DNA of 39,469 nucleotides from assembly GCA_028864875.1 (NCBI GenBank), contig JAGWLV010000003.1:1-39469 (forward strand), given 5' to 3'. Positions 9,980 to 26,578 of this stretch are shown piece after piece. Numbering within the stretch: position 1 is the stretch's first letter; the number at the start of each line of letters is the position of its first letter. The position numbers and the translations under genes were made by a program. The stretch comes from Patescibacteria group bacterium (GTDB taxonomy: Bacteria > Patescibacteriota > Minisyncoccia > Phycocordibacterales > SBAW01). The notes beneath the pieces are model-generated. The model made no database searches. It worked only from the letters and a program-made list of their open reading frames with translations, and was not told the origin of the DNA.

Positions 9980-10097
9980 ACTCTGGCGGCTAGCTACTCT
10001 CGCCCTCCGATTAAGAGGACTACCATCGCCGCAAGCGAGCTTAACTTCCGTGTTCGGAATGAGAACGGGTGTGACCCCGCCGCCAAGCCACCAAAGT
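9980..10097 (-). rRNA. rrf: 5S rRNA
   Basis: Reverse complement has GGGGTCACACCCGTTCTCATTCCGAACACGGAAGTTAAGC and GCGATGGTA...GAGAGTAG, with paired terminal stem. Confidence 0.97.
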
Positions 10098-10159: not shown

Positions 10160-10193
10160 AAACAACAAATTATTGCGACTCTCAAGTTTCCGC

Positions 10194-13212
<3,019 letters not shown>

Positions 13213-19777: not shown

Positions 19778-22700
19778 TTACTGCGTGCGGTTCTGAACGA
19801 TACCGCTGGCCGGGAGCCCTGGAATACCGAAGGCGTCGGTCCAGTCGTTGCTTGCAGCAACTGCGGTTGTCGTCGAGTTCGGAGACCAGGTGAAGTTGGC
19901 ATTGCTCGTCGCAGTGCTGTTGTTCACTAGCTTCGTCGAGGTCGCGGCTTGGTCAGCAATCGCCAGGAACGCGCTGTCACCCGAGAGGGTTGTCGCTACG
20001 TTGTAGGTGGCTGCCGTACCAGAGACCGTGCCTTGCACCTGGAAGTAATAGGTGCCGCCTGCCGGAACTTCGATGAGCGAGGACGGGGTGATGGTGAACG
20101 CCGTCGCGGTCGGAGCGACCGAGGAGGAGTTGACCAAACCGCCCGTACCGACACCGGAGATAGGCTGGCTGTACGCCGCGTCGGTGTAGCCATACATGTT
20201 GATGGCGGTCACCGTTGCAGACGTGGTCGAGAGGGTGAACTTGAATTGGCTCAAGCCTACGGGGCCACCCGCGCTTGCAGTTACCTTAAAGCGCATGAGG
20301 CGACCATCACCGATACCATTGGCCGAGAGCTGGTTCGTGCCAGTCTCAAGAGCCACCGTCGGGTAGGACTTGAAGACACGGACACCGTTTGCGCCCGTCG
20401 ATGCGAGACCCGCGCCAATCGTGAGACCCGAGGACTGGCCGGAGCCTTCCGCGTTGAGCGGGTCGACTTTGACGAGGTTGCCCGGAGTACCCGGTTGGCT
20501 TGTACCCTGGTTTGCAAGGTCAGCCTTCACGACGATCGTCGCGTCGGTGTCCTTCGGAAGGACAACCGGGGTCGAAAGTGTGGAGGTTGCCGAGATGTTC
20601 GTACCCGTGATTACCGCCGTACCAAGGAGGGTGCCTGCTGCTACGTTGAGGCCGGAGCCTGCGTAGAGGTACACCTGGGTGAGGTCCTGAGCGGTCGAGG
20701 AGCCAGTGTTTGTACCCGAGCCACCAGTGAGCGTGAGACCAAGCTTGTTGAGCGTGATCGCTTCGTTGGCGGCGCGGAATTTAAGTACCGACATTGTCGT
20801 TCCGGTCGTGCCTGCTGTCGCAACCGTGTAGGAGGGCGATGAGGCGTCGACCGAGACCGTGAGAGAACCTGTGCCGACCGTCATCGTGCCGCCGGCGTTC
20901 GCGCTGTTGGTCACAGTGACCGACGAGCCCGAAGTGACGCCCGTTGCAGAGATCGTGTCGGAGCTGTTGAGCGAGACAGTGTACGTACCCGAGGCAGAGC
21001 TCGTAGTATTGCACTTCGCGCCGAGCGTGAGCACTGTACCCTTCGGCACCGTGAGGGTGTTGTCGAGGGTGAAGTTGTTCACCGCGCTGGAGCTGATGCT
21101 CGTCGGGACGTTGCTGCCCGTGTTGAGGGCAGTCGAACCGTTCCACACCTGGCAGGTCTGGAGGCCCGTGCCGTTGCTGAAGCGCAGCGGTATCGAGCTG
21201 AGGCGTACGTCCTCGCCGGACTGTGAAGCGTCAAGCTGCACGTTGCCGAAGAGGATACCCTGGCCGCCCGCCACGATGTTCTGGCTGACCGGAGTGGCCG
21301 CCATAGATACCGTGAGCGAAGCCGCCTTGACCGTCATCTGGTTGAGCGAGAATACACCGATCGAAGAAAGCGAAACGGTGTTGCCCGACACCTGACCAGT
21401 GACGCCCGTCCACGCGGACGGCGTGACATAGATCGTCACGGTCGAGCCGTTGCCCGCCGTGGTGCCGATCTTGCCCTTGAAGGTGTACGTGTGCGTACCG
21501 ACCGGGAAGGTGACCGTGTCGCTGAAGGTCAGCGCAGAACCGGTCGTGTCGTTGGTGGCCGTAGTCGTGTTGTCGATAGGACCGGCAACAACTAAGCCGT
21601 TTTCGTCAACGAGGCTGATGCTCGTGACACGGCCAAGTTGTGTCGATGAAGTCGATACCGAGAACTTGAGCCCGGTGACCGAGACCGGCTCGCCGCGGAA
21701 GTTCGTCACAAACCCGCCGAGAGGCTGGTTGTTGACGTTAACCGCGATGTTCTGCGCCGGAACCGACGTCGCCTTGCTGATGGAGGTCGCCGTACCAGCG
21801 TTGATGGTCGTCACATATCCTGCGCGCCACGGCTGGTTGGTGCACTGGAGTCCGGCACAACCGAGGTCGGTCGAGCCGTATCCGTACGTCTGGCCGACAA
21901 AGTACACATCCGTGTTCTTGTCGATGTCCATTTCAACCGTGCGGTTTGCAGAGTTGGTGCCGACGATGTCGCCCTGGACATACACGTCTACGCTGTTGCC
22001 CTTACCAATCAGGATGCCGCCCGGGAAGACGGTCGTGTAGTACCTGCCGGTAGAGTCAATGGTCGTCGGGTAGGACGTACCGTTGACAACAGTCGTGATG
22101 TTGGCGATGTCAGAGGCCGAAGCCGAGCCGACTTGGCGCCAGCGGAGGCTGTAGAGGCGAAGGTCTTCAGCAGAAGCTGAGGTAAAGCGCAGCCCCGAGA
22201 AGCGCACGCCCGTGTCGCCGATGTTCTTGGTCTGTGCTGCACCCGGGTCGTAGGACGACGTCGTGGTGGAGAACGAGCCCAAGGTCAACGTGGTGTTCAT
22301 GGTCTGAGAGGCACCCGTTATCGGGAGCGAGCCGGAGACCGCCGCCGAGGTGTTGACTGCAACAACCTGCAAGCTGACGACCTGGCCGCTGTTGCCGGTC
22401 TCAGCACCCATGTTGCCGACAACCGTGAAGGTCATCGACGCACCCGCCGCGATGGTAAAGCCATCGAGGTTAGCCTGGTGGTTGGAGTTGAGCGTCTTCG
22501 CGGTGCCGATCTGGAGGCCATTGCTGTCCACCAAGACGATACCCGAGAAGTTTGCGTCAACACCCAAACCGGTGCGCTGGACCGTCACCGAGTTGACCGT
22601 CACCGCAGCGGAGCTGTTGTTGGTGACAGTGAAAGTAGTGAACGGAACGCGCGTGGCGTTTGCCGGAGCAAGCGAGTTGGCCGGCTGCGCGCCGCCAGCA

Positions 22701-23131
22701 ACAACGAGCGTGCCTGTGCCTGTACCTGTGCCGGTGCCGGTACCTGTGCCGGTGCCACTCTGGGAGCCAGAGCAGACCGCAGAGATGGCTGCGCGGGTCA
22801 AAGGACCGACGATGCCGATCGGAGACACGTTGTTTGCCTTTTGGAACTTGACTACCGCAGCGAACGTAAGGCCACCGAAGTAGGTGGACTCATTGCCGGG
22901 GGAGCCAACACCCGATGCAGAAACCTGAGTACCGGCGTTGGAGTTAAGGAACACCTGGAGGGCCTTAACGTCCGCGCCGCTCATACCCTTGGAGAGCGAG
23001 CGGGTGAGAGCCGGGCAGGCTGCCGCCGCGTGAGCGGGGGTAACAGCGAAGGCGCCTGCGAAAGCAACCACCGCAACTACACCTATGGCAACTGCAACCA
23101 GCTTTTGCGAACTGATGCTAATTGAATTCAT
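19778..23131 (-). CDS. large secreted S-layer-like surface protein with N-terminal peptidoglycan-binding domain (1117 aa)
   Basis: Signal peptide ending AHA; PG-binding motif LSKGMSGADVKALQVFLN...YFGGLTFAAVVKFQ...GIVGPLTRA; (GT)n linker; several Ser/Thr-rich beta-sandwich repeats. The S-layer role is inference. Confidence 0.8.
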   Translation of the reverse strand: MNSISISSQKLVAVAIGVVAVVAFAGAFAVTPAHAAAACPALTRSLSKGMSGADVKALQVFLNSNAGTQVSASGVGSPGNESTYFGGLTFAAVVKFQKANNVSPIGIVGPLTRAAISAVCSGSQSGTGTGTGTGTGTGTGTLVVAGGAQPANSLAPANATRVPFTTFTVTNNSSAAVTVNSVTVQRTGLGVDANFSGIVLVDSNGLQIGTAKTLNSNHQANLDGFTIAAGASMTFTVVGNMGAETGNSGQVVSLQVVAVNTSAAVSGSLPITGASQTMNTTLTLGSFSTTTSSYDPGAAQTKNIGDTGVRFSGLRFTSASAEDLRLYSLRWRQVGSASASDIANITTVVNGTSYPTTIDSTGRYYTTVFPGGILIGKGNSVDVYVQGDIVGTNSANRTVEMDIDKNTDVYFVGQTYGYGSTDLGCAGLQCTNQPWRAGYVTTINAGTATSISKATSVPAQNIAVNVNNQPLGGFVTNFRGEPVSVTGLKFSVSTSSTQLGRVTSISLVDENGLVVAGPIDNTTTATNDTTGSALTFSDTVTFPVGTHTYTFKGKIGTTAGNGSTVTIYVTPSAWTGVTGQVSGNTVSLSSIGVFSLNQMTVKAASLTVSMAATPVSQNIVAGGQGILFGNVQLDASQSGEDVRLSSIPLRFSNGTGLQTCQVWNGSTALNTGSNVPTSISSSAVNNFTLDNTLTVPKGTVLTLGAKCNTTSSASGTYTVSLNSSDTISATGVTSGSSVTVTNSANAGGTMTVGTGSLTVSVDASSPSYTVATAGTTGTTMSVLKFRAANEAITLNKLGLTLTGGSGTNTGSSTAQDLTQVYLYAGSGLNVAAGTLLGTAVITGTNISATSTLSTPVVLPKDTDATIVVKADLANQGTSQPGTPGNLVKVDPLNAEGSGQSSGLTIGAGLASTGANGVRVFKSYPTVALETGTNQLSANGIGDGRLMRFKVTASAGGPVGLSQFKFTLSTTSATVTAINMYGYTDAAYSQPISGVGTGGLVNSSSVAPTATAFTITPSSLIEVPAGGTYYFQVQGTVSGTAATYNVATTLSGDSAFLAIADQAATSTKLVNNSTATSNANFTWSPNSTTTAVAASNDWTDAFGIPGLPASGIVQNRTQ
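22710..22756 (-). repeat. Gly-Thr coding tandem repeat (linker)
   Basis: GGYACN hexamer repeats encoding GTGTGTGTGTGTGTGT. Confidence 0.8.
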
Positions 23132-23417: not shown

Positions 23418-23462
23418 ATTATATGGGTACCCCTCTGGGCCTCCAAATAGTCGTGTGGATAA
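23418..23462 (-). promoter_or_regulatory. promoter of the S-layer-like gene with adjacent consensus DnaA box
   Basis: TTGGAG (23441-23446), 17-bp spacer, TATAAT (23418-23423). TTATCCACA at 23454-23462. Confidence 0.65.
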
Positions 23463-23590: not shown

Positions 23591-24265
23591 TTATAGGGGG
23601 AGATAGAGGGTCCAGCGGCGCTCCCCCACCTTGCGCACAAGACGGGCCTCTATAAGAGTAGCGATCTCCCGCTGGAGCGTCTTTTCGCTACACCCGCGGA
23701 CCTCCCCCGCTATATCCTTAATGGACACGCTCTTATTCTTTCGGACAATGTCCAATATCTTCTTGGCCCTGTCGCTGAGGGCCTTCAGCCCGCTCGATTT
23801 GCCGGCGGCCTTTCCGACCTCGAGCGCCGGGAGTGTGGCGTGTTGCCCATCCGGCAGAGTCACCGAGAGGTCCGCCGTCGCCGCAAAGGGGCTCGGGTGG
23901 CTCCCTGCAACCAGCCGCTCGGCCACCTGTTCATATTCCCGCTGCAAAATAAGGACATTTTCCCTATCGATGAGCTGCGCGGCCTGGAGTACGCGGAGCT
24001 CCGAGAGGAGCGCGTAGATGTCGGAGAGCACGATGGCGGCATCTATCTCGCCTGCGGCAAGGTGGGCAATCTGGGAGGGCAGTGCCGCTGCGGCGCGCAT
24101 TACCTCGCCCACATCGGGGGTCATAACGGACAGGTGCGCAAGCACTTGTGCAATCTTGTCTGTCTTTAAATAGCACCAATACCAATCAAGACGTCCTTTA
24201 AAAAGTACTGAATGTAAAGAGAATTCGTGAAATTTTGCACCTCGCTCTGACATGTCTTTTATCAT
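23591..24265 (-). CDS. helical-bundle plus C-terminal DeoR-type winged-helix DNA-binding protein
   Basis: C-terminal DRAKKILDIVRKNKSVSIKDIA...SEKTLQREIATLIEARLVRKVGERRWTLY. The N-terminal part is amphipathic helices. Confidence 0.8.
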   Translation of the reverse strand: MIKDMSERGAKFHEFSLHSVLFKGRLDWYWCYLKTDKIAQVLAHLSVMTPDVGEVMRAAAALPSQIAHLAAGEIDAAIVLSDIYALLSELRVLQAAQLIDRENVLILQREYEQVAERLVAGSHPSPFAATADLSVTLPDGQHATLPALEVGKAAGKSSGLKALSDRAKKILDIVRKNKSVSIKDIAGEVRGCSEKTLQREIATLIEARLVRKVGERRWTLYLPL

Positions 24266-24301
24266 TATGTCCTTTAATGTCCTTTAAAATCTATAAGACA
24301 T
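24161..24301. repeat. cluster of (A)TGTCYTTTA direct and inverted repeats
   Basis: TGTCTTTAAA 24161, ACGTCCTTTA 24191, ATGTCTTTTA 24252, ATGTCCTTTA 24267 and 24277, inverted TAAGACAT 24294. Confidence 0.75.
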
Positions 24302-24382
24302 TCTCTCGGACGTCATGGACGCCCGTAAGTATACACGAATCTGTGGAGTCAACCACTAGGAATGCCGTGATAAAATTGCGCA

Positions 24383-26578
24383 ATGGCGCGCAAGAAAGCC
24401 TCTAGTTTCGGCAATCCCCTCTCTGCCATACCCGCGGAGACAAGGCGCACCATACTTTCTATCGCCCTCACTGTGGCGGGGGTCTTTCTCACCCTGGCCG
24501 CCTTTGGGGCGGCGGGTATTGCGGGCTCAGACGCCTACCGGCTCTTTGCCGAGCTCCTCGGTGCCGGGTACTTCCTCGTGCCGGCGCTCTTTTTTGTCCT
24601 TGCAGCGGCCTTTTTTAAAGAGCGCGATGAGGGTGCCGAGAGTCCCGACTACCTCAAGCTCGTCGCGAGCATCTTTTTTATCATCTCGGGGCTCGGGTTT
24701 GTCGACATCGCGAGTGGACACGGCGGCATCGTCGGACATGCAATATCCGCGCCCATGGTCGCCTACTTCGACATCTACGCGGCGATGCTCATCTTGGGGG
24801 CAGTGCTTCTTGTGTCGCTCCTCCTCATTGTCGAAGGGCGCCTCTCCACCGCACCCTTTGTGGGGTTGTGGACCTTTGCGCGCGGGCTCTGGAGCCGCAC
24901 TACTCCCGCGTACGACCCGTTGAGTGCGTATGACGAGGCGCCCGCGGAAAACGAAGAAGAGTCTCAAGGGAAGGATGGCGAAGAAGAGGAATCTGAGTAC
25001 GAAGAAGATGACGAGGAGCCCGTCGCGCCCGCAAAGGCGCGCTCGGCCGCCGCGGCACTCAAGGCGCTCCTCGGACAGTACACTCCCCCGCCGCTCTCCT
25101 TGCTAGAGCGCGATCGCGGGCGCCCCGGCGTGGGCGACATTAAAGGCAACGCCAACATCATCAAGCGCACGCTACAAAACTTCGGCATCCAAATCGAGCT
25201 TGATGAAATTTCTATCGGGCCCTCGGTCACGCGCTACGCGATAAAACCGGCGGAAGGGGTGCGCCTCCAAAAAATCGTCGCACTCCAAAACAACCTCGAG
25301 TTGGCACTTGCCGCCCACCCGGTGCGCATCGAAGCGCCCATTCCGGGCAAGTCGCTCGTCGGCATTGAAGTGCCGAACTCAACCAAGGTGACCGTGGGCC
25401 TCGGCACCATTCTCGAGTCGCCCGACTTTGTGCAAAGCCACAAGCCGCTCGTGGTCGCCTTGGGCCGCGACATCGCGGGCGGGAGCCACTTTGCCAATGT
25501 CGCCCGGATGCCCCATGTGCTCATCGCGGGCGCGACCGGCTCGGGCAAGTCGGTCACCATCCACACGCTCATCACCAGTTTGCTGTACCGCTCTAGCCCC
25601 CAGCAATTGCGATTTATTATGATCGACCCCAAGCGCGTCGAGCTGACTCTCTACCGCAGCCTCCCCCACCTCTTAACGCCTGTTATCACCGACGCCAAGA
25701 AGGCCATTATGGCCTTGCGCTGGGCGGGCAAGGAAATGGAGCGGCGCTACAATATTCTTGAAGAGCACCGCGTGCGCGACGTCGAGTCCTACCACCAAAA
25801 TATTCTTGCCCCCAAGCTCAAAAAGCTCAAAGAGCGCGGGGCCGAGGAGGGCGCCGAAGTCCCTGAAGCGCTGCCCTACATCGTCGTCGTCATCGACGAG
25901 TTGGCCGACATTATGCAGAGCTTCCCGCGGGAACTCGAGGCCGCGGTGGTGCGGCTCGCGCAGATGAGCAGGGCGGTTGGCATCCACCTGGTGCTCTCCA
26001 CCCAGCGGCCGAGCGTCAACGTCATCACCGGACTCATCAAGGCCAACGTCCCCACCCGCATTGCGCTCCAGGTCGCGAGCCAGATAGACTCGCGCACCAT
26101 TTTGGACCAAGGCGGCGCGGAGAAGTTGCTCGGGAGCGGCGACATGCTCTACCTCTCGGGCGACATGAGCAAGCCGGTGCGCCTGCAGAGCGCGTTCATC
26201 AGCGAAAAGGAGGTGAAATCGGTTGTAGATTTTATCGCCAAGAACAACGAGCCTGAACTCCCGATAGAAATTGCGCCGGCGGCTGCGGGCAGCGACGGTG
26301 TCAGAGTCGGTTCAAACTTCGGCGGCGGGGGCGGCTTTGGCGATGAGGACGATGTCGACGACGACGTGTACCAAGCCGCGCGCGCTGCCGTTCTCGAGGC
26401 GGGCAAGGCTTCGACAAGCTACCTGCAGCGCAAACTGCGCATCGGCTACGCGCGCGCGGCGCGCATCATCGATCTCCTTGAAGAGCGCGGGGTCATAGGC
26501 CCCGGCGACGGCGCCAAGCCGCGCGAAATTTTAGATAAATCAGGGCCCCCCGAGCCCGCTGGCGAGGAAGAAGTGTAA
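24383..26578 (+). CDS. ftsK: DNA translocase FtsK/SpoIIIE
   Basis: N-terminal 4TM domain, RIEAPIPGK, PHVLIAGATGSGKS, MIDPKRVEL, DELAD, TQRPS and gamma domain STSYLQRKLRIGYARAAR. Confidence 0.98.
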   Translation: MARKKASSFGNPLSAIPAETRRTILSIALTVAGVFLTLAAFGAAGIAGSDAYRLFAELLGAGYFLVPALFFVLAAAFFKERDEGAESPDYLKLVASIFFIISGLGFVDIASGHGGIVGHAISAPMVAYFDIYAAMLILGAVLLVSLLLIVEGRLSTAPFVGLWTFARGLWSRTTPAYDPLSAYDEAPAENEEESQGKDGEEEESEYEEDDEEPVAPAKARSAAAALKALLGQYTPPPLSLLERDRGRPGVGDIKGNANIIKRTLQNFGIQIELDEISIGPSVTRYAIKPAEGVRLQKIVALQNNLELALAAHPVRIEAPIPGKSLVGIEVPNSTKVTVGLGTILESPDFVQSHKPLVVALGRDIAGGSHFANVARMPHVLIAGATGSGKSVTIHTLITSLLYRSSPQQLRFIMIDPKRVELTLYRSLPHLLTPVITDAKKAIMALRWAGKEMERRYNILEEHRVRDVESYHQNILAPKLKKLKERGAEEGAEVPEALPYIVVVIDELADIMQSFPRELEAAVVRLAQMSRAVGIHLVLSTQRPSVNVITGLIKANVPTRIALQVASQIDSRTILDQGGAEKLLGSGDMLYLSGDMSKPVRLQSAFISEKEVKSVVDFIAKNNEPELPIEIAPAAAGSDGVRVGSNFGGGGGFGDEDDVDDDVYQAARAAVLEAGKASTSYLQRKLRIGYARAARIIDLLEERGVIGPGDGAKPREILDKSGPPEPAGEEEV

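Follow-up and report, generated by a model that had tools for sequence, protein, structure and literature searches.

The gene considered here lies on the minus strand of a 39,469-nt stretch of a Patescibacteria genome (contig JAGWLV010000003.1), which as a whole is called the window throughout. It encodes a protein with a predicted four-helix bundle at its N-terminus and a winged helix-turn-helix (wHTH) at its C-terminus, hereafter the regulator, and it is oriented divergently from ftsK. Copies of a conserved 9-nt motif, TAAARGACA, occupy its leader and recur within its early codons, and I propose that they form an operator array through which the regulator probably represses its own transcription. 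The features of the locus are collected in Table 1.

The open reading frame (ORF) at 23591-24265 on the minus strand translates into 224 amino acids. Because 19 homologues align from its residue 5 (M5) onwards, I place the start codon at 24251-24253 and not at 24265, so that the protein is 220 residues long. The four codons MIKD, which a preliminary description of this DNA had taken as the beginning of the protein, are untranslated leader DNA. The stored gene call for the window (P0001, 184 amino acids) begins at a later methionine. In the alignment of the 19 homologues, the segments KFHEF, LFKGR and DWY.CYLK are almost invariant.

Table 1. Features of the regulator locus and of the second array locus in the same genome
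Feature	Position	Strand	Basis or remark
Regulator gene	23591..24253	(-)	220 amino acids plus stop; ORF list, homologue alignment
N-terminal four-helix-bundle domain, residues 1-125	23879..24253	(-)	AlphaFold2 (AF2) model, fold matches
Disordered interdomain linker, about residues 126-159	23777..23878	(-)	predicted local distance difference test (pLDDT) <50 for residues 131-152
C-terminal wHTH, about residues 160-220	23594..23776	(-)	Pfam, fold matches, invariant columns
-10-like hexamer TATACT, regulator promoter	24328..24333	(-)	sequence; conserved column block in the alignment of relatives
Leader, promoter-proximal part	24292..24325	(-)	sites opposite in orientation to the gene
Three same-sense sites	24252..24287	(-)	position weight matrix (PWM) scores 17.8, 18.1 and 17.5; relatives occupy the same positions
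Intragenic site, codons 15-21 (S V L F K G R), TTTTTAAAGGACG	24191..24211	(-)	synonymous freezing in relatives
TTTAAAGACAGA in codons YLKTD	24159..24170	(-)	PWM score 13.5; codons of relatives vary freely
Perfect DnaA-box-like 9-mer TTATCCACA	23454..23462	(-), strand of the gene	between regulator stop and surface-protein gene
Large surface protein, 1117 amino acids, N-terminal PG_binding_1	19778..23131	(-)	about 460 nt downstream of the regulator
Divergent ftsK	24383..26578	(+)	Pfam matches to FtsK_SpoIIIE (E 4e-61) and to the alpha, gamma and 4TM domains
rRNA genes	1-919, 9981-10095, 10192-13212	all (-)	Rfam
Second array locus, window-genome equivalents (G000, locus L079)	C2:8520-8570, C2:6690-6810		arrays around cca, UPF0102/YraN and tRNA

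The repeat array and its conservation

Allowing at most one mismatch, the pattern ATGTCYTTTA matches six times in the window, and five of these matches fall within 24191-24301: four on the plus strand, at 24191, 24252, 24267 and 24277, and one inverted, at 24292-24301. The copies at 24267 and 24277 form a perfect 10-nt tandem. When the whole window is shuffled, the mean is 2.0 matches and only 1 of 100 shuffles reaches six. GC content drops from about 0.65 to 0.31-0.38 across 24150-24350, and because the region is AT-rich, the local test was run with a PWM, trained on 247 sites from relatives only. In the AT-rich stretch 24254-24382 three PWM sites are found where 0.09 are expected, and none of 2000 dinucleotide shuffles reaches three; in 24140-24382 there are six sites where 0.25 are expected, and again none of 2000 shuffles reaches that number. 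The array described earlier is thus real and well beyond chance.

Read from the promoter of the regulator, the layout in the window begins with the -10-like TATACT, which has no clear -35 partner, as a TTGACT is just 13 nt away. A first same-sense site directly 3' of the -10 box is present in relatives and degenerate in the window. The promoter-proximal leader then holds the degenerate GGACG twice (24308-24322) and TATAAGACAT at 24292-24301, all in the orientation opposite to the gene, with a PWM score of 9.5 for 24291-24302. Among the same-sense sites, TAAAGGACAT occurs twice as the perfect tandem with 10-nt spacing (plus strand, 24267-24286), and AAAAGACAT overlaps the start codon (24252-24261).

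The preliminary description had listed further copies at 24161, 23950, 23743 and 23256, and these are not conserved. Codons around the 24161 copy (LKTD) vary freely in relatives, and the TTTAAAGACAGA found there is probably a chance match to the motif; the other three have no conserved counterpart in relatives. At the copy listed at 23712 (IKDI), the Lys codon of SIK is not frozen either (0.52 versus 0.51 expected).

A scan of species-representative genomes gave at least 599 matching stretches, 569 of which encode a relative, and 78 loci were kept. The anchor FKGR..W is present in 45 of the 78, and 43 of these 45 have at least 200 nt upstream; with the window added they form the upstream set of 44 sequences. 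One locus cut by a contig end (L019) was left out of the upstream analyses, and one with a truncated gene (L057) out of the codon analyses.

The common upstream layout reads TTGCnn, about 16 nt, TATACT, one base, an AAAGACA site, about 5 nt, an inverted TGTCYTT, a second inverted copy, and finally TAAARGACA in the sense of the gene, two or three times, its last copy abutting the start codon. AAAGACA occurs 55 times in the 44 upstream stretches of 123 nt (in 35 of the 44 sequences), where the flanking DNA of those loci leads one to expect 0.34, and the bases on either side of it, which are outside the search pattern, are conserved as well (T 83-93%, A 87-93%). A strict TAYACT box is present in 25 of the 44 sequences, and a site follows it after exactly 1 nt in 24 of these 25. 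Since the site trails the -10 box by a single nucleotide, the array would start over the predicted transcription start. Adjacent leader sites are spaced by 10-11 nt in 26 of 43 pairs and by 21-22 nt in seven, and copies in both orientations are found at conserved positions.

Among the 43 relatives and the window, the sites are confined to three places: the leader of about 75 nt, codons 15-21 and, in most relatives, the DNA encoding the interdomain linker. In the loci of the relatives they are almost absent from the 2 kb on either side of the gene, including the region upstream of the surface-protein gene. No link to an S-layer promoter, as drawn earlier, was found, the sites there being sporadic and not conserved in relatives. 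The check proposed at the same time, enrichment of the motif around homologous genes together with conservation at synonymous sites, turned out positive on both counts in the 43 relatives.

In the codon alignment, made of 43 relatives and the window, synonymous positions are frozen at two places, codons 15-20 and the KD/KG codons of the linker. Within codons 15-20, CTT is found in 42/44 sequences, TTT in 44/44, AAA in 40/44 and GGA in 41/44, and the arginine codon is CGN in 44/44, with N free. Codon homozygosity for Ser, Leu and Gly is 0.82-0.91 here versus 0.17-0.26 expected (0.82 versus 0.17 for the Ser codon TCA), and neighbouring Asp, Tyr, Cys and Leu codons drift. The site at codons 15-21 is present in 40 of 43. 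The KD and KG(Q/H) codons in the relatives' linker are frozen as well (AAA 0.95, GGA 0.90, GAC 0.83), and the DNA there can be read as two to four copies of TAAAGGACA, mostly 12-13 nt apart, in an array about 450-520 bp downstream of the one in the leader. The linker of the window, PALEVGKAAGKSSGLKA, has no motif copies. The earlier idea that the motif shapes the protein itself can therefore be kept for FKGR (within LFKGR) and, in relatives, for the KD..KGQ..KG linker, and has to be given up for IKD, which is leader, and probably for the freely varying LKTD.

The regulator protein and its relatives

For the whole protein, AF2 gives a pLDDT of 85.9 and helices at residues 3-14, 22-44, 46-56, 58-66, 72-91 and 97-118. 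The N-terminal domain modelled alone reaches a pLDDT of 91.4 and a predicted template modelling score (pTM) of 0.81, and the winged helix a pLDDT of 94-96 over residues 161-219. In the wHTH, CSEKT.QRE and GERRW are invariant, as is the recognition region. Pfam matches to helix-turn-helix (HTH) families are weak and sub-threshold (E 0.003-0.03), and a profile search of PDB sequences likewise gave weak wHTH matches only (BlaI 1p6r, E 0.032). By fold, the domain matches wHTHs of the BlaI/MecI, ArsR and MarR types with Z about 10-11, the closest being MecI (1okr_A, Z 11.3, root mean square deviation (rmsd) 2.2 over 66 residues).

The preliminary description had seen a DeoR-like wHTH without a sugar-binding domain. 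The wHTH and the lack of an effector domain are borne out, and membership of the DeoR family is rejected: HTH_DeoR (PF08220) aligns to residues 166-213 with 14.7 bits, below its cut-off of 21 bits (E 0.027), a C-terminal effector domain is lacking, and the HTH is C-terminal, not N-terminal.

The best structural matches of the N-terminal domain are Avd (8ub7_B) and a member of the IVP family (2rld_A), both with Z 12.7, followed by the IVP-like 2gsc_A (Z 11.9) and a second Avd structure (4dwl_A, Z 11.8), with rmsd 2.1-3.0 over 98-111 aligned residues; Z values under about 13 are common for helical bundles, and an engineered ROP bundle (1yo7_B) gives Z 11.4. The top nine Foldseek rows are all 2gsc or 2rld chains (TM 0.60-0.73, E 0.05-0.3), after which TM drops. 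As modelled, the domain is an up-down four-helix bundle of about 110 residues that superposes on solved members of PF05635. By sequence, no Pfam family matches the N-terminal domain; the PF05635 profile gave no match to that of the window and one among 41 relatives (E 0.056), and a genome-wide PF05635 search found none in the window's genome at E<=1e-8. Comparing the N-domain alignment with 24 Patescibacteria IVP proteins in hhalign gave a probability of 7.9% over 21 columns (pairwise E 0.0044), with a short local likeness, RAAxLPxxIAH versus RRAAVSIPSNIAE. The earlier guess of an IVP/Avd-type domain is right as far as the four-helix bundle and its best-matching folds go; the likeness holds as fold, and homology is supported by no sequence test. 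Look-alikes of the domain in the ESM Atlas (best score 0.84) fall into unnamed clusters and gave no lead. Of 251 genomes sampled from the phylum, 135 encode stand-alone PF05635 (23S rRNA IVP) proteins (134 of 250 without the unpublished G154), many of them in multiple copies, with up to 15 matches per genome.

A search of a large protein collection yielded 355 homologous proteins at E<=1e-3 among 1753 candidates. The best 120 of the 355 are 224-280 amino acids long, with 47-54% identity and 95-100% query coverage; a few of these 120 are labelled Candidatus Adlerbacteria, and many carry a precomputed PF08220 match. Of 88 genomes belonging to the window's GTDB family, 83 match the N-domain profile (82 of 87 without the unpublished G775), each in a single copy; among the high-quality genomes the count is 63 of 65. 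In an even draw from the same order, 19 of 301 genomes matched at E<=1e-5, and in a sample of the phylum 40 of 401 (the window's genome included), mostly by the wHTH part only. Five genomes from other families of the order have the helical domain, a variable linker, SIKDI..CSEKTIQRE..RRWS and AARGACA sites around starts, and relatives at about 27% identity keep the winged-helix signature together with such sites around their starts.

The surroundings of the gene are conserved too. As the starts of the regulator and ftsK are 130 nt apart, their promoters lie back to back, and from this arrangement the array may possibly affect ftsK. The divergent ftsK is present in 43 of 44 loci, the single miss lying at a contig end, recA follows beyond ftsK in 36 of 44, and 40 of 44 have the gene for the large surface protein downstream, on the strand of the regulator. 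An iteron/Rep initiator system was considered and rejected: the gene is chromosomal, single-copy and syntenic, and no Rep-type initiator (such as Rep_3) is among the Pfam and NCBIfam matches.

Rfam finds rRNAs only over the whole window. These rRNA genes are not in the usual operon order, since 23S and 5S lie together and 16S (its 5' part, at the window edge) is downstream of 5S and not upstream of 23S; the 23S match spans 3021 nt, versus 2925 positions of the model.

A second array locus and DnaA-box-like sequences

Of the 88 genomes of the family, 82 have the tandem pattern AARGACA-N3-6-AARGACA, with one to six matches each versus 0-2 for the reversed control (82 of 87 without G775, which has none). 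In the phylum sample it is found in 128 of 401 genomes, mostly once, which is about the control level. Among 150 of the 207 matches, most family genomes have a pair ending in GTAAAGGACA away from the regulator gene. Six of these places were fetched (L110-L115), and all are one and the same locus, comprising the CCA-adding enzyme (cca), tRNAs, UPF0102/YraN and a methyltransferase; the Pfam check of these genes was made on the copies of the window genome. Arrays lie there at three spots: beyond the 3' end of cca, between cca and UPF0102, and after the UPF0102 stop, before a tRNA. The first and the last follow a -10-like ATACT box, as in the promoter of the regulator. Rfam gives tRNAs only above threshold at this locus, and arrays are found at only about two loci per genome.

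Close to the cca array of the window genome (C2:8580-9430, or L079:3580-4430), about 380 nt of noncoding DNA precede apparent gene remnants, a C-terminal fragment of an ABC-ATPase and a small ribbon-helix-helix-like ORF; the sole RNA match here is weak and sub-threshold in Rfam. A distant member of the order (L146, G324:C1:66396-66447) has two tandem pairs, AAGGACACTAAAGGACA, facing each other across a short GC-rich palindrome, directly after an ORF with a SecA-like zinc-finger tail. This element could be an operator or a terminator-like palindrome.

The arrays of the cca locus are interleaved with DnaA-box-like 9-mers. The window's genome (588,602 nt) has seven perfect copies of TTATCCACA, which I take to be the DnaA box consensus, where about 2.5 are expected by chance, as estimated from base composition; two of the seven lie in the cca-locus arrays and a third is the box at 23454-23462. 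Boxes with at most one mismatch, in the same orientation, lie 40-200 nt beyond the regulator's stop codon in 41 of 41 loci. The one in the window stands just upstream of a promoter-like stretch (TTTGGA-18 nt-TATAAT), and the sequence suggests a possible DnaA-dependent control of the major surface protein.

Such boxes could mean that a different factor binds the arrays, either DnaA with a further partner or a global regulator, and that the winged-helix gene is a target and not the source of the binder. The boxes in and beside the cca/UPF0102 arrays, the one downstream of the regulator in every locus, and the fact that three of the seven perfect genomic boxes adjoin arrays or the regulator gene would fit. 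I nevertheless regard this as rather unlikely, as the motif is unlike a DnaA box, the regulator's own leader has no conserved box, and the arrays track the protein family, being common in the GTDB family and at background level across the phylum; moreover, it is the regulator gene itself that carries the densest arrays, as is usual under autoregulation.

The position of the cca locus relative to the origin was looked at in the nearly complete relative G710 (contig C1, 495,613 nt; L116-L140). Its cumulative G-C minimum is at 253,899, at dnaA (254,248-255,588), within a flat trough of about 250-290 kb. At one edge of this trough (254 kb) lie dnaA and a cluster of DnaA boxes; at the other lies the cca array locus (291.7-293.7 kb) with three boxes, about 38 kb from the skew minimum. 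This is ambiguous, and I did not adopt the cca locus as the origin. The placement at the far edge from dnaA would suit a role in organising the chromosome or in replication (as a centromere-like, nucleoid or origin-accessory factor), with the arrays as loading or titration sites, as would the neighbourhood of ftsK and recA and the resemblance of the bundle to IVP and Avd entries. Such a role is improbable, though: the skew minimum coincides with dnaA, the arrays occur at only about two loci per genome, they consistently come after -10-like boxes, as operators would, and neither Pfam nor NCBIfam gives a match to a ParB, Rep or nucleoid-associated protein family. The centromere or nucleoid module entertained in the preliminary description accordingly finds no direct support.

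Recognition of DNA or RNA

RNAalifold on the 44 leaders yields only a mini-hairpin of 4 bp (-1.76 kcal/mol) with no compensatory pairs. In the candidate 5' hairpin, formed by the first inverted pair, 68.6% of the cells are paired versus 67.2% in shuffles, and 87 of 500 shuffles score as high; since the shuffles pair as well, the palindromic nature of the motif accounts for the pairing, which is no sign of covariation. In the window's genome, the 5-mers most enriched in the 22 nt preceding the first ATG of long ORFs are TATAC and ATACT, and no Shine-Dalgarno-like k-mer is enriched there, which suggests that many mRNAs of this genome may be leaderless or have short leaders. AAAGGA was accordingly discarded as a Shine-Dalgarno sequence, most copies moreover being AAAGACA, and GGA sites of the CsrA type were ruled out by reasoning only, in the same way.

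Even so, the repeats could act in mRNA, with UAAARGACA in the 5' untranslated region, the early codons and the linker codons bound by an RNA-binding protein, possibly the regulator itself, that controls translation or stability. The copies in the leader, at +50 and in the linker are all transcribed, mostly in sense, the last leader copy abuts the start codon, and a long leader is unusual in a genome without Shine-Dalgarno enrichment. What makes this unlikely is that opposite-orientation copies keep conserved positions, that the spacing follows the helical repeat of DNA, that the first site overlaps the -10 box and the start region, and that the arrays at the cca locus lie beyond gene 3' ends and in antisense; no conserved RNA structure or covariation was found, and by its fold the winged helix resembles repressors that bind DNA. 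Four of these points, the copies in both orientations, the phasing by helical turns, the first site over the -10 box and start region and the antisense placement, favour recognition of duplex DNA.

Proposed mechanism

The motif, its placement, the conservation of synonymous sites, the fold and the synteny are direct observations, and the reading I prefer, a cooperative autorepressor with a small regulon, is probable though well short of certain. It draws on the enrichment and placement of the motif, the promoter overlap, the helical phasing, the synonymous freezing, the lack of conserved RNA structure in the leader, the repressor-like wHTH fold, the persistence of signature and sites in distant relatives, the frequency of tandem sites in the family against a background level in the phylum, and the same layout of a -10 box followed by sites at the second locus. 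I infer that the regulator protein is itself the binder, that its binding represses and that it oligomerises. It would be a lineage-specific transcription factor in which a flexible linker of about 35 residues joins the N-terminal four-helix bundle to the C-terminal winged helix, the latter reading the 9-nt TAAARGACA on double-stranded DNA. The predicted operator array begins 1-2 nt after the -10 box, over the transcription start, and then fills the leader of about 75 nt up to the start codon with copies one helical turn apart, with one more at codons 15-21. Protein copies linked through their bundles might occupy this array cooperatively, and the gene's own transcription would be shut off by promoter block or by a roadblock; in relatives, looping from the leader to the intragenic linker array would also be possible. 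The CCA-adding-enzyme/tRNA/UPF0102 locus is probably a further target, and the back-to-back ftsK promoter possibly another.

Several observations weigh against this proposal. The window has a reduced array, its first site after the -10 box being degenerate and the linker array missing. The connection between protein and motif is one of co-location and co-conservation alone, and repression rather than activation is deduced from position alone. The distant relatives were fetched by the winged-helix peptide pattern itself, for which reason they cannot serve to test whether recognition helix and motif co-vary. The leader sites are nearly all transcribed, most of them in sense orientation, which is compatible with RNA recognition, and the DnaA-box-like sequences that accompany the motif at the cca locus mean that another factor could be involved.

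A more speculative reading, which I consider a long shot, is that the protein is an oligomeric hub, Avd-like and perhaps pentameric, whose tethered winged helices read arrays of helically phased sites. With DnaA it would then act as a switch that responds to replication or the cell cycle in these minimal bacteria, and would link its own level, set by the arrays in its leader and coding sequence (the linker codons among them), to ftsK/recA, the major surface protein and tRNA-maturation genes; the cca locus would then be origin-proximal or origin-accessory.

To my knowledge, next to nothing has been learnt about how Patescibacteria (also called the Candidate Phyla Radiation, CPR), which cannot be grown alone, regulate their genes. 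The regulator described here is single-copy and nearly universal in one family, and divergent forms of it occur across the order. It now has a precisely defined candidate motif for binding, and both an operator layout and a small regulon are predicted for it; all of this can be tested with recombinant protein and without culture. It is also a case in which a signal at the DNA level constrains protein sequence, as the array dictates the invariant LFKGR and, in relatives, the KD..KGQ..KG content of the linker.

Comparison with known systems

In the literature searches made here, neither this regulator family, its motif, nor operator arrays in a regulator's own coding sequence turned up, the motif strings appearing in unrelated papers only; nor was a protein found that combines a winged helix with an IVP/Avd-like bundle. 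The regulator has the features of an autoregulated winged-helix repressor, a wHTH domain and conserved repeated sites over its own promoter and start, with binding and repression predicted. The closest solved wHTH folds are those of MecI and BlaI, small autoregulated repressors that act in a divergent intergenic region. In contrast to these, the regulator has the reverse domain order, with the helical domain N-terminal and the wHTH C-terminal, and a long disordered linker, and its sites are a direct-repeat array, some of them intragenic, instead of one or two palindromes. The DeoR family shares the alignment to HTH_DeoR, which many relatives match in precomputed form, and differs by the sub-threshold score, the sugar-phosphate effector domain missing here and the C-terminal position of the HTH.

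With the 23S rRNA IVP (PF05635) and Avd proteins, the latter of which form pentamers, the N-terminal domain has the size and topology of its four-helix bundle in common, although the ROP bundle scores nearly as high and the match may reflect a common helical arrangement only. IVP and Avd proteins stand alone, however, and have no DNA-binding domain. Intragenic auxiliary operators and looping are familiar from LacI (O2 in lacZ), GalR (OI in galE) and the multi-operator looping of DeoR, and the relatives similarly pair a promoter-proximal operator with a cluster about 450-520 bp downstream in coding DNA. Unlike in those systems, the sites are direct-repeat arrays, the window lacks the distal array and looping is a prediction; and the distal operators of the relatives are part of the very gene that encodes the regulator, where they dictate the sequence of its own linker.

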